3,128 nt of DNA, taken from the sequence record AF466696.1; one strand, given 5' to 3'. Shown piece after piece: positions 1 to 3,128 of this stretch. How positions within the stretch are numbered: position 1 is the stretch's first letter; every line of letters begins with the position of its first letter. Origin of the DNA: Escherichia phage Mu. Both the position numbers and the translations under genes were made by a program. The notes below the pieces were generated by a model. It did no database searches and had not been told where the DNA came from. It saw only the letters and a list, made by a program, of their open reading frames with translations.

Positions 1-40
1 TTATCCAAAACTCGGTTTACAGGAAACGGTAAATCAGGCT
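1..40. repeat. Left terminal inverted repeat; nt 1..25 is a Gin/Pin/Cin-type crossover site that is 1 bp short (TTATCCAAAAC-TC-GGTTTACAGGAA)
   Basis: Identical to the reverse complement of 3088..3128 except for one missing C in the outer half-site. The site has internal dyad symmetry (TTATCCAAAACC versus reverse complement TTCCTGTAAACC) around a central TC dinucleotide, as in hix/gix sites as I recall them. Confidence 0.85.
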
Positions 41-1019
41 AGGAACGCCGTGCAAAAGAATGGCGATACCTTGTCCGGTGGGCTTACTTTTGAAAACGAC
101 TCAATCCTTGCCTGGATTCGAAATACTGACTGGGCAAAGATTGGATTTAAAAATGATGCCGACAGCGACACTGATTCATACATGTGGTTTGAAACAGGCG
201 ACAACGGCAATGAATATTTCAAATGGAGAAGCAAACAAAGCACCACAACAAAAGACCTGATGAATCTTAAATGGGATGCTTTGTCTGTTCTTGTCAATGC
301 CATTGTAAATGGCGAAGTCATATCAAAATCAGCAAACGGCCTCCGTATTGCTTATGGTAATTACGGATTCTTTATTCGTAATGATGGTTCAAATACATAC
401 TTCATGTTGACAAACTCCGGTGACAACATGGGGACTTATAACGGATTAAGGCCATTATGGATTAATAACGCTACTGGCGCTGTTTCGATGGGGCGTGGTC
501 TCAATGTTTCAGGGGATACACTTTCACACCGTTTTGCTATTAACAGCAGTAATGGTATGTGGATTCAGATGCGCGATAACAACGCTATCTTTGGGAAAAA
601 TATAGTTAACACTGATAGCGCTCAGGCGTTGCTTCGCCAGAATCACGCCGACCGCAAATTTATGATTGGCGGTCTGGGAAATAAGCAATTTGGCATCTAC
701 ATGATTAATAACTCAAGGACAGCCAATGGCACCGATGGTCAGGCGTACATGGATAATAACGGAAACTGGTTATGCGGTGCTCAGGTCATTCCGGGAAATT
801 ACGCCAACTTTGACTCCCGCTACGTGCGTGACGTTCGGCTGGGAACTCAGTCACTGACTGGCGGCTTGTCTCGTGATTACAAGGCGACATCCGGTCATGT
901 TATTACAGGTTTTCATACCAATGGCGACTGGGAAATGCAGGGGAGGGGATGACAAAGTTTATATCCGTCCGGTTCAGAAGAATATCAATGGTACCTGGTA
1001 TAATGTAGCGAGCGCCTGA
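2..1019 (+). CDS. stf: Side tail fibre protein, variable C-terminal (receptor-binding) module A; 5'-partial (constant part lies upstream of the window), with an apparent frameshift near the 3' end
   Basis: The frame is open from nt 2 through the left crossover site ([33 protein letters not shown]...) to TGA 950..952, 317 codons; the ORF-track entry 50..952 is the GTG-initiated part of it. Composition is Gly/Asn/Thr/Ser-rich, typical of fibre distal domains. A conserved fibre tail [23 protein letters not shown] is encoded 948..1019 in another frame and ends 2 nt before the tfa ATG, so the body is cut off at 952. Confidence 0.8.
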
Positions 1020-1021
1020 TT

Positions 1022-1552
1022 ATGATGCATCTGAAAAACATTAAGTCAGAAAATCCAAAAACTAAAGAGCAATATCAGCTAACAAAGAATTTTGATGTTA
1101 TCTGGTTATGGTCCGAAGACGGGAAAAACTGGTATGAAGAAGTAAATAACTTTCAGGACGACACCATAAAGATTGTATGCCACGAAAATAATATTATTGT
1201 TGCCATAACCAAAGATGCCTCTACGCTTAATCCCGAAGGCTTTAGCGTCGTTGAAGATTCCAGATATAACAGCCAACCGCCGCGCTGATGATTCATGAAA
1301 GTAAATGTTTAATGATGGGAGCTGTAATTAAACGGATTTATACGGCAGACGAACAGCAACAACGAGCCGAATCACAAAAGGCCGCATTGCTTTCCGAAGC
1401 TGAATCAGTCATCCAGCCGCTGGAACGCGCTGTCAGGCTGAATATGGCGACGGATGAAGAACACGCACGACTGGGAGTCATGGGAACGCTACAGTGTTCT
1501 GGTCAGCCGTGTGGATACGGCAAATCCCGAATGGCCACAAAAGCCTGAATAA
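1022..1552 (+). pseudogene. tfa: Tail fibre assembly protein (Tfa/U family) A, apparently disrupted by three frame changes
   Basis: ORF 1022..1288 begins [24 protein letters not shown]...DGKNWYEE...NPEG, which resembles the Tfa N-terminus of E. coli cryptic prophages (TfaE-like, from memory). The middle of the protein (..[50 protein letters not shown]) is in the frame of ORF 1288..1548. The expected C-terminus [26 protein letters not shown] is back in the first frame and ends at TAA 1550..1552. Frame changes fall at about 1253..1261, 1288..1330 and 1471..1480. Confidence 0.75.
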
Positions 1553-1557
1553 AAATT

Positions 1558-1577
1558 AAGGCCCGATAGCGGGCCTT
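1558..1577. terminator. Probable bidirectional factor-independent terminator hairpin between the convergent tfa genes
   Basis: AAGGCCCG-ATAG-CGGGCCTT forms a perfect 8-bp stem with a 4-nt loop. On the - strand it is followed by a T-run (complement of AAAAATTAA at 1551..1559); on the + strand it is followed by a weaker CTCTCATTCT tract. It sits 5 nt after the tfa-A stop and 3 nt after the tfa-B stop. Confidence 0.5.
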
Positions 1578-1580
1578 CTC

Positions 1581-2112
1581 TCATTCTGGTTGTTCTGGAA
1601 ACGTTACTGGCAGGCTGGAGGTGTCTGTGGATTCGACCTTCTGCGCGTAGAACATCCACTCTGTTAATTTTTGTTTATTCTCGTCGGAAATGATGCCCAG
1701 CCGTAGCCTGTGAGTCCCATAGCTGTGTTTTATCCCTGACGAACTGTAGCAGGCTTTGCTTTTCATTTTCCGCTTGTTGCCTCTGCTCTTCCTCGGTATA
1801 AGTTCGCTTTATCACTACACCATCTTTGAAACATCCATTTACCCGAAATATCAGCCCGGCGATATTGCTGTAATATCAGGAAACCTCAACGACGTTTGCG
1901 CCTTCTGGATTAATTGCTGAAACATCCTTTTCAATACAAATAATAACGCCGTTGTGGTCAGACCATTTTCAACGTATCAAGCTGAAAGTTCTTTTGTTCC
2001 TCATACCAGTTTTTCCCATCCCCTGTATAAAGCCATTTGATGTTAAATTGTTTCGTTAGCTGGTATTGCTCTTTTGTTTTAAGGTTGCCAGCAGTAATAT
2101 TTTTTAAATCAT
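1581..2112 (-). pseudogene. tfa: Tail fibre assembly protein (Tfa/U family) B, disrupted by multiple small indels
   Basis: The ATG at 2112..2110 sits 2 nt after the stf-B stop but is followed immediately by an in-frame stop (ATG ATT TAA), consistent with 1 nt lost from an ATG CAT TTA AAA AAT start. Tfa segments are spread over several frames: [50 protein letters not shown] (ORF 1958..2185), then DHNGVIICIEKDVSAINPEGANVVEVS*, then FKDGVVIKRTYTEEEQRQQAENEKQSLLQFVRDKTQ, then RLGIISDENKQKLTEWMFYAQKVESTDTSSLPVTFPEQPE* (ORF 1581..1766). These are homologous to tfa-A on the + strand. Confidence 0.75.
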
Positions 2113-2114
2113 AA

Positions 2115-3126
2115 TTAAATACTCCCCGCGTTATACCACGTTCCATTAATGCAATACTGAATTGGCCTTGCCTGAATTGTATCAATTAATTCATCACGGT
2201 TTCCGTTACTGAACCCGTAACGACATAACCTGACCTGTCAGACCAGCCGGGACCATTCCATGTCTGAACAGATGACAGACCGCCAAGACGAATACCTGTA
2301 ATAAACCTTGAGTTACATTCTGCCTGCGTATATGCACCAACATCTCCCGCTGATGGCTTACGTGTTGTGGTGTAAATTTCTGACCAGTCAGCTTCGAATC
2401 CGTAACCATCACGCGCTGAACGATAAAAAATACCGCCGTTCCTGTAATTCACACGGCTGTACGGCAGGGCAACTCCCCGTATTCATATTGAAGTGGAGGA
2501 TTAATGTCGGCAGGGCAACTCCCCGTATTCATATTGAAGTGGAGGATTAATGTCGATGCGCCACCAATATTTGCGTTATAGACCCCGCTATTCCAGTTCC
2601 AGCCAACAGCTTTATCATTTCCGACAGTGCTTCCTGTTTGTCCTAAAGCAAATGCAGGCTGCTGGTTTTTCGTGTTGTAGTCTCGTCGCCAGCCAGGAGC
2701 ATAAGCATCACCATGATTAATATAAGTGAATTGAGCGTTAGTGATTCCGCCGCCGCTGGACGTACTCGGCGTAGTAACGCGTATGGTCATTGCGCCGCGA
2801 GTGCCAATAACTTCCACCACAGCACCTGCATGACAAATATTTCCGCAACCTGTATCTGTAATGACCTTATTGTTTGCATAAGCCCATGAGCCTTTGCACA
2901 TCCAGTAAGGATGGTTAAATGCCCCCTGACTCTCCAGCCACGAAATAAATTGTGCGGTTGTCCAGACCTGACTATCGCCACCAATATTCAGCCATGCGCT
3001 ATATGCGCGACAGGCCCCAATATTTTTGGTGAAGGTATCTTTTCCTGGAATATCTGCGCCGTTCTGGTTTTGCTGTAATGCGCCAGAAGCCTGATTTACC
3101 GTTTCCTGTAAACCGAGGTTTTGGAT
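2115..3126 (-). pseudogene. stf: Side tail fibre protein, variable C-terminal module B; 5'-partial on the - strand (would join the upstream constant part after inversion), disrupted by a 46-bp tandem duplication and frame changes
   Basis: On the - strand the frame is open from 3126 through the right crossover site ([81 protein letters not shown]..., continuing as ORF 2449..2901) to TGA at 2449..2451, 226 codons. Coding continues in a second frame as ORF 2186..2452 (NYRNGGIFYRSARDGYGFEADW...SGYVVTGSVTETVMN*). The conserved fibre tail ..[23 protein letters not shown] is in a third frame, ending with TAA at 2115..2117. Confidence 0.8.
2462..2555. repeat. Perfect direct tandem duplication, 2 x 46 bp (units 2464..2509 and 2510..2555) plus 2 flanking matching nt, inside stf-B
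   Basis: GCAGGGCAACTCCCCGTATTCATATTGAAGTGGAGGATTAATGTCG occurs twice back to back with 100% identity. On the - strand the two copies are read in different frames (..TLILHFNMNTGSCPA then DINPPLQYEYGELPC), and the frame stops at 2449 shortly after. Confidence 0.95.
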
Positions 3127-3128
3127 AA
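3088..3128. repeat. Right terminal inverted repeat; nt 3103..3128 is a full-length 26-bp crossover site (TTCCTGTAAACC-GA-GGTTTTGGATAA)
   Basis: Reverse complement is TTATCCAAAACCTCGGTTTACAGGAAACGGTAAATCAGGCT, matching nt 1..40 with one extra C. It shows the 12-2-12 half-site architecture typical of serine DNA invertase sites. Confidence 0.85.

Follow-up and report, generated by a model that had tools for sequence, protein, structure and literature searches.

A copy of the bacteriophage Mu G segment with interrupted fibre and chaperone genes, probably reflecting errors of sequence determination

The window, as we call the whole stretch of 3,128 nt analysed here, is by its sequence the bacteriophage Mu G segment, its two ends coinciding exactly with the outer edges of gixL and gixR. 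It aligns with positions 31954-35037 of the Mu genome (NC_000929) with 100% coverage and 98.6% identity, and Mu prophages in 11 E. coli genomes match it to the same extent (100% coverage, 98.6% identity). The next-nearest relatives are D108, D6, P1 and SfMu, at 89-93% identity. Mu and the window are collinear over the whole length and are alike in gene order, gixR, terminator hairpin and proteins, with the Mu annotation supplying S, U, U' and S' as well as the boundaries of the G segment at Mu 31966 and 35025. The G segment is the already known, founding example of its class of tail-fibre host-range switches, and since about 1980 it has served as the model of how phages switch host range through DNA inversion. 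Solved structures exist for Gin and for S with U, and Mu has a reference genome and many sequenced relatives. The window is therefore an ordinary one, of little importance overall. What sets this copy apart is a series of differences from reference Mu, and these are most probably errors of sequence determination or of record assembly, in a low-accuracy read of the Mu G segment that is probably a legacy of the time before automation.

Sv and U lie on the plus strand and U' and S'v on the minus strand, with a shared terminator hairpin between the two pairs. The features are the following.

1-40, no strand: left terminal inverted repeat arm (34 bp in its canonical Mu form)
1-25, no strand: gixL, left Gin crossover site, 25 nt with the central TC at nt 12-13, located by the NC_000929 alignment
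2-1019, plus strand: Sv, variable C-terminal portion of the G(+) tail fibre protein, S, from PDB 5yvq and Pfam Gp34_trimer
1022-1552, plus strand: U, tail fibre assembly chaperone for S (Mu Mup50; Pfam Caudo_TAP on the fragment 1288-1545)
1558-1577, no strand: G+C-rich hairpin, shared (bidirectional) terminator on which the stop codons of U and U' converge, from a terminator scan
1581-2112, minus strand: U', chaperone for S' (Mu Mup51; Pfam Caudo_TAP on the fragments 1584-1766 and 1678-1815)
2115-3126, minus strand: S'v, variable C-terminal portion of S', the G(-) fibre (Mu Mup52; translation and graft test)
2462-2553, no strand: perfect tandem duplication within S'v, two 46-nt copies at 100% identity
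3088-3128, no strand: right terminal inverted repeat arm, 41 nt
3103-3128, no strand: gixR, Gin crossover site, intact 26 bp with the central dinucleotide at 3115-3116, identical to Mu

The preliminary description had recognised two fibre C-termini facing each other, each with a Tfa-type chaperone, and this holds. Sv matches PDB 5yvq ('Tail fiber protein S', E = 1.8e-207), aligning without gaps to Mu S residues 169-480 with only four aligned positions that differ, and it contains the Pfam domain Gp34_trimer (7.7e-38), while Caudo_TAP is found on fragments of both U and U'. Compared with tail-fibre and Tfa proteins, the translations turned out to be Mu S, U, U' and S' themselves. The D108 annotation has rho-independent terminators, one strand and the other, at the place equivalent to the hairpin. 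No RNA families were found in the window by the Rfam scan, and the promoter scan gave fewer sites in the window than in shuffled sequence.

The same description had proposed an invertible cassette that swaps the receptor-binding domain on a constant fibre N-terminus, and the Mu reference context supports this. There, the constant fibre region expected upstream is present, since S (31458-32972) starts 496 nt upstream of the segment and reads across gixL, as is also seen in E. coli W. The serine recombinase of about 180-190 aa expected nearby is gin, which encodes 193 aa with the Pfam domains Resolvase and HTH_7 and starts 55 nt past gixR. Inversion of the G segment is visible in public data for the reference element: the E. 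coli W assemblies NC_017635 and NC_017664 carry an identical 3084-bp segment (294480-297563) between the same flanks in opposite orientations, so both of the orientations that had been predicted are on record.

The mechanism is established for Mu and is applied here from the reference context. The constant 5' part of S (Sc) would lie outside the segment, with transcription running into it, and in the G(+) orientation it would form one reading frame with Sv, the chaperone gene U coming next. Gin, with host Fis at the enhancer, would pair the two inverted 26-bp gix sites, cut at the central dinucleotide, turn one half by 180 degrees and religate. After inversion, Sc would be fused to S'v, followed by U', which would confer the other receptor specificity and host range. 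PMC3575834, from which the role of Fis is taken, describes Gin, gix, Fis and the rotation of one half by 180 degrees, and PMC4406740 describes the S/U and S'/U' pairs, the 34-bp inverted repeats and the G(+) and G(-) host ranges.

The terminal inverted repeats of 40/41 nt noticed beforehand do exist: against the reverse complement of 3088-3128, nt 1-40 match at 40 of 41 positions with one gap, and the ungapped part found in the repeat search (7-40 against 3088-3121) comprises 34 nt with 97% identity. This length is peculiar to the window. In Mu, D108, PEC422 and SfMu the two arms have only 34 bp in common, since the left arm there goes on as CAGGGCT or CAAGGCT, where that of the window reads TCAGGCT, as in the right arm. 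Both ends had been described as 12-2-12 dyads. This stands for the right end, where gixR has its 26 bp, the dyad symmetry being partial (7 of 12 half-site positions matching), and fails for the left end, which has 25 bp arranged as 11-2-12. On the other strand gixR reads TTATCCAAAACC-TC-GGTTTACAGGAA, identical to both Mu gix sites, and it matches the annotated cixR of P1 at 21 of 26 positions in the register of the annotated crossover. The left site, gixL, lacks one of the two C at Mu 31964-31965 and keeps the central TC. It would be a proper 26-bp site if the missing C were a reading error; as written, it is not.

As written, all four reading frames of the window are also interrupted. The frame of Sv is open at nt 2-952, and an additional G at nt 940 moves the last 26 codons into the frame of the ORF at 873-1019. 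The entry of the fibre frame had been placed at nt 2, but the real Mu frame enters at nt 3. Three +1 insertions (1254, 1317 and 1473) break U, as do nonsense changes at 1296 and 1303/1304. In U' there are +1 insertions at 1707, 1829, 1864 and 1881 as well as deletions of 2 nt at 1959 and of 4 nt at 2107, the latter leading to a stop at codon 3; together they break the gene. S'v is open from 3126 down to 2452 and is then interrupted, the changes being the 46-nt duplication and deletions of 2 nt at 2456 and 1 nt at 2207. When the window is grafted into the Mu flanks, the missing C of gixL produces a stop after 175 aa in the G(+) orientation, and the duplication produces one after 391 aa in G(-). 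The duplication, whose junction is flanked by a 2-nt microhomology (CG), is present neither in Mu nor in the four aligned relatives (D108, PEC422, SfMu and P1).

In total, 23 substitutions and 14 indel events separate the window from Mu, the latter including the 46-nt tandem duplication and the 1-nt loss in gixL. What the window adds to the Mu G segment is thus this duplication, the 25-bp gixL, the TCAGGCT left arm and a frameshift in every gene, whereas the Mu reference, two E. coli W copies and S17-1 are mutually identical or 1 nt apart. None of the 14 indels has a length that is a multiple of three, and most of the 1-nt indels sit in short homopolymer runs. The ratio of substitutions to indels is 23:14, against 242:7 in D108 (Fisher P = 2e-9) and 35-60:1 in real relatives. 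Most of the substitutions (18 of 23) are non-synonymous or nonsense; in a separate per-codon count, 16 of 24 differing codons are non-synonymous in the window and 77 of 192 in D108. G->A on the plus strand accounts for 11 of the 23 substitutions and is preceded by A in nine of these (P = 2e-5), with none of the sites in a CCWGG (Dcm-type) context when the contexts were inspected by eye. The central 1.1 kb (nt 1150-2250) contains 27 of 38 difference events (P = 7e-6), and the 575 nt at the right end only one change.

The G segments of D108, PEC422 and SfMu resemble the window in architecture, in the 34-bp terminal repeats and in the adjoining gin, at 90-93% identity. They differ in having diverged mainly through substitutions, and in many of their indels the length is a multiple of three; D108 and SfMu each have one gix with G, not C, beside the central dinucleotide. 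Over 44 differing columns, a comparison that omits the 46-nt duplication, the four relatives D108, PEC422, SfMu and P1 all have the Mu base at 35, while the window base occurs in all four at 2 columns and in three of the four at 1. The A at nt 36, the A at nt 887 and the T at nt 989 agree with relatives and not with reference Mu. Therefore, the template was probably a slightly different Mu stock, and some of the differences are not errors. Codon 462 of Mu S is polymorphic (Pro/Ser/Thr).

We favour sequencing or assembly errors for the remainder because the differences are unique to the window and have the profile of reading errors. About 40 differences break gixL and all four genes, and they would be errors rather than mutations in a living element. 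The decayed state that the preliminary description had seen in the cassette is thus probably not biological. Changes in homopolymer length and duplications flanked by microhomology are also products of replication slippage, which counts against errors of reading. Literature searches for a legacy sequence of the G segment on record that shows these discrepancies, or for a list of corrections, returned only general papers.

Real decay, in a defective Mu prophage, a long-kept laboratory construct or a mutagenised stock, seems unlikely to us. The fibre genes would have lost selection and accumulated slippage indels, the duplication and point mutations, and the 1-nt loss in gixL would have frozen the orientation. 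The involvement of all four genes and one crossover site is as expected without selection, and the 1-nt indels in homopolymer runs and the CG microhomology at the duplication junction suit slippage. Naturally damaged relatives are known, such as the Mu-like prophage PEC422, whose fibre gene has an annotated internal stop, and the states at nt 36, 887 and 989 would point to a real, distinct lineage. However, 14 frameshifting indels for only 23 substitutions depart widely from the ratio found in real relatives, and decay does not account for the strong AG->AA context and strand bias, nor for the clustering of events in the middle third with a nearly unchanged right end. Independent Mu copies are otherwise virtually invariant, and the tested variants occur in no other genome, plasmid, phage or metagenome contig of the searched collections. 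The duplication junction string has no exact match in viral or metagenome contigs, a 34-nt string with six window-specific variants has none in viral or species-representative genome contigs, and seven ORF products of the window have none among 15 billion proteins, although such absence from collections is weak evidence.

We also consider it unlikely that the record is the accurate sequence of a real Mu derivative with a dead switch, a 1-nt deletion in gixL, four destroyed genes and a gene-converted left repeat. The deletion would move a Gin half-site one base nearer to the cleavage centre, slippage indels and the 46-nt duplication would have destroyed all four fibre and chaperone genes, and gene conversion, with the right arm as donor, would have lengthened the left repeat from 34 to 40 nt. 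If the variants were true, this would be one more inactivated prophage module, and a natural gix spacing mutant would be a minor curiosity. Caution is needed with the features that only this copy of Mu G has, namely the frameshifts, the 25-bp left site and the 40/41-nt repeats, whose biological interpretation is unwarranted unless independent reads reproduce them.

Alteration of the known element in silico or by an assembly pipeline, as artificial noise or uncorrected consensus errors of long reads, is very improbable. The exact cut at the outer ends of the repeats, the differences being unique singletons and the homopolymer indels, which look like uncorrected long-read errors, would fit it. 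However, uniform noise would produce neither the preceding A in 9 of 11 G->A changes nor the regional clustering, and a perfect 46-nt duplication and G->C or A->T transversions are rare in long-read consensus errors.

That the window holds a new invertible cassette with a pair of fibre domains not described before, as had been suggested, is wrong to near certainty: beyond the general architecture nothing speaks for it, and against it stand the identity to the Mu G segment over the full length and the gapless alignment of Sv to Mu S, the archetype being represented by a structure (5yvq) and a complete reference genome.

A mosaic origin, with the divergent centre imported from another phage, was considered and rejected, since the best match of nt 1150-2250 is still Mu (97.2%, the next being 93.8%) and all four relatives have the Mu base at most variant positions of the centre.

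Among other systems, Pin/pix of e14, Hin/hix of Salmonella and Min of p15B have the same class of 26-bp sites and Fis- and enhancer-dependent serine invertases as Gin, but Hin switches a flagellin promoter and not fibre domains, and Min shuffles several segments. The C segment of P1 and P7 (Cin/cix) is a homologous switch, in which Sv, U, U' and S'v show about 90% identity across about 91% of the window and the invertase gene likewise adjoins the segment. It differs in being larger (4.2 kb), in the longer inverted repeats of P1, in crossover sites lying about 600 nt outside the G-homologous region, and in its recombinase Cin, which has its own enhancer.

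Megablast searches matched the entire window to Mu (NC_000929/AF083977, 31954-35037) with 98.6% identity and 100% coverage, and equally well to the Mu prophages of 11 complete E. coli genomes, including W, LY180, KO11FL and S17-1. The next-closest sequences are D108 (92.8%) and D6, P1, SfMu, P88 and P1-like plasmids (89-93%). The Mu alignment and annotated parts identify the window as the G segment, ending at the outer edges of both 26-bp gix sites. It is the known Mu system, not merely one similar to it. The preliminary description was right about the cassette architecture and the inversion mechanism; its possibly undescribed pair of fibre domains is already known.

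Annotated parts in Mu
31458-32972: S, with a 'G-segment boundary' at 31966
32975-33502: U
33531-34064, - strand: U'
34067-35024, - strand: C-terminal part of S', with the second G-segment boundary at 35025
35092-35673: gin, with com and mom coming next

The flanks were checked in the reference context of Mu, the window itself carrying none. A fibre constant region and a serine recombinase gene, both anticipated beside the segment, are present: the constant part of S (Sc) starts 496 nt upstream and reads through gixL, and gin starts 55 nt past gixR, encoding a 193-aa protein with Resolvase and HTH_7 domains. Both orientations, also foreseen, occur in E. coli W, where assemblies NC_017635 and NC_017664 have a 3084-bp segment identical to that of Mu, both at 294480-297563, with gin joined to its left and Sc to its right in one and the reverse in the other. 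The pair is a public, ready-made case of Gin inversion caught in assemblies. The segment of LY180 and KO11FL agrees with the second W assembly (NC_017664). In Mu, dimers of Gin bound at both inverted gix sites synapse and are activated by Fis; cleavage at the central dinucleotide is followed by a 180-degree rotation of one half and religation (PMC3575834, PMC4406740). Transcription and translation come in from Sc, giving Sc-Sv and U in G(+) and Sc-S'v and U' in G(-) (PMC3575834, PMC4406740). The two fibres recognise different receptors, hence the different host ranges.

The 3128 nt of the window open with TTATCCAAAACTCGGTTTACAGGAAACGGTAAATCAGGCT and close with its reverse complement, which has one C more. 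The repeat search gave an ungapped core of 34 nt (7-40 versus 3088-3121, 97%); with one gap, the terminal arms are 40 and 41 nt long, 40 positions matching. The repeat length of 40/41 nt and the frame entering at nt 2, as first proposed, both stem from window-specific differences, the canonical repeat having 34 bp and the true frame entering at nt 3. The gixR site is identical to Mu gix, matches 21 of the 26 positions of the annotated P1 cixR, with the annotated crossover in register, and has partial dyad symmetry (7 of 12 half-site positions). In gixL one C is missing, leaving a 25-bp site (11-2-12). At nt 34-36, CAG of Mu is TCA in the window, so that the left arm continues like the right one. 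Beyond the canonical repeat (nt 34-40) the left arm reads TCAGGCT, exactly as the right arm, whereas Mu has CAGGGCT and D108, PEC422 and SfMu have CAAGGCT; the change turns an S residue from Arg to Gln and stems from either a misreading or gene conversion from arm to arm. One gix site each in D108 (gixL, L004 1501-1526) and SfMu (right site, L006 4576-4601) has AAAACGTCGG instead of AAAACCTCGG, a change adjoining the central dinucleotide. In the SfMu paper it is suggested that this change may reduce or abolish inversion (PMC4406740).

On the + strand, a long open frame (nt 2-952) is followed by broken ORFs to about nt 1550; the - strand mirrors this set, its last frame being open from 3126 down to 2452. 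The expected resemblance to tail-fibre and Tfa proteins was found: the translation of nt 2-949 matches PDB 5yvq ('Tail fiber protein S', E = 1.8e-207) and contains Pfam Gp34_trimer, and fragments of both chaperone genes match Pfam Caudo_TAP, as do intact Mu U and U' (~1e-37). A G+C-rich hairpin (1558-1577) lies between the convergent stops of U (1550-1552) and U' (1581-1583), where D108 has terminators annotated on both strands. Two internal inverted repeats (1194-1273 versus 1867-1946, 80 nt, 70%; 900-914 versus 2290-2304, 15 nt, 93%) are not extra recombination sites; they reflect diverged paralogues in opposed orientation, U with U' and the end of Sv with that of S'v.

Base-by-base alignment with Mu revealed 23 substitutions and 14 indel events, among them the following.

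Length differences from Mu in the window
940, 1254, 1317, 1473, 1707, 1829, 1864, 1881: +1 insertions
1959: deletion of 2 nt
2107: deletion of 4 nt
2207: deletion of 1 nt
2456: deletion of 2 nt
2462-2553: perfect tandem duplication of 46 nt, copies 100% identical (repeat search)

With the window grafted into Mu flanks, the S product is 175 aa long in G(+) and 391 aa in G(-), where Mu has 504 and 488 aa. U is interrupted by three frameshifts plus three nonsense changes, and U' by a stop at codon 3. The decayed state noticed earlier holds for the frames and gixL as written, and is probably not biological. As written, gixL falls short of the 26-bp definition and the genes are not open frames, failings best put down to the copy rather than the element.

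We consider it likely that the differences are sequence errors. The G copies of reference Mu and both W assemblies are mutually identical, and that of S17-1 differs by one nucleotide. In 44 differing alignment columns (46-nt duplication left out), the Mu base is found in all four relatives (D108, PEC422, SfMu and P1) at 35, which makes the window states there singletons; the window's base is shared by all four only at nt 36 and 989, and by three at nt 887. No indel among the 14 has a length divisible by three, and the substitution:indel ratio is 23:14, versus 242:7 in D108 (Fisher P = 2e-9) and 220:4, 419:7 and 373:6 in the other relatives. Eighteen of the 23 substitutions are protein-changing or terminating; in a separate per-codon count, 16 of 24 differing codons are non-synonymous, versus 77 of 192 in D108. 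Counted on the + strand, G->A accounts for eleven substitutions and C->T for one, with A preceding 9 of the 11 G->A sites, compared with 20.5% of Mu G's (P = 2e-5). This bias is context- and strand-specific, as we infer would be expected from misread G bands after A on sequencing gels. Events are clustered, 27 of 38 in nt 1150-2250 (P = 7e-6) and one in nt 2554-3128. Real decay of this Mu copy is an improbable explanation: slippage does yield homopolymer indels and duplications flanked by microhomology, and the states at nt 36, 887 and 989 resemble genuine polymorphisms from another Mu stock, but the six observations just described (invariant Mu copies, singletons, indels, protein changes, G->A bias and clustering) count against it. 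A mosaic donor for the centre (nt 1150-2250) is excluded because its best match is still Mu. No match was obtained to either of two window-specific strings or to any of seven ORF products in the collections in which they were tested: viral, species-representative genome and metagenome sequences and a set of 15 billion proteins.

The 46-nt duplication is flanked by CG microhomology, with the 2-nt deletion 6 nt upstream, and its first copy ends exactly at a TCGA (TaqI) cut position; artefactual merging of fragments or slippage could have produced it. The related G segment of E. coli PEC422 shows natural partial decay: in its Mu-like prophage (L007 3606-5072) the annotation lists the fibre gene as a pseudogene carrying an internal stop and flags the other fibre part as incomplete.

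The Gp34_trimer domain (nt 131-463, Sv residues 44-154) is common to the Mu fibre and the proximal subunit of the T4 long tail fibre (PDB 4uxe, 5nxh, E ~1e-20), a case of fibre-module sharing across unrelated myophages. At nt 887 (Mu 32841, S codon 462), reference Mu, E. coli W and PDB 5yvq have CCA (Pro), Mu of E. coli S17-1 has TCA (Ser), and the window, D108, PEC422 and P1 have ACA (Thr). With three alleles, this position within the fibre's receptor-binding part appears to be truly polymorphic.
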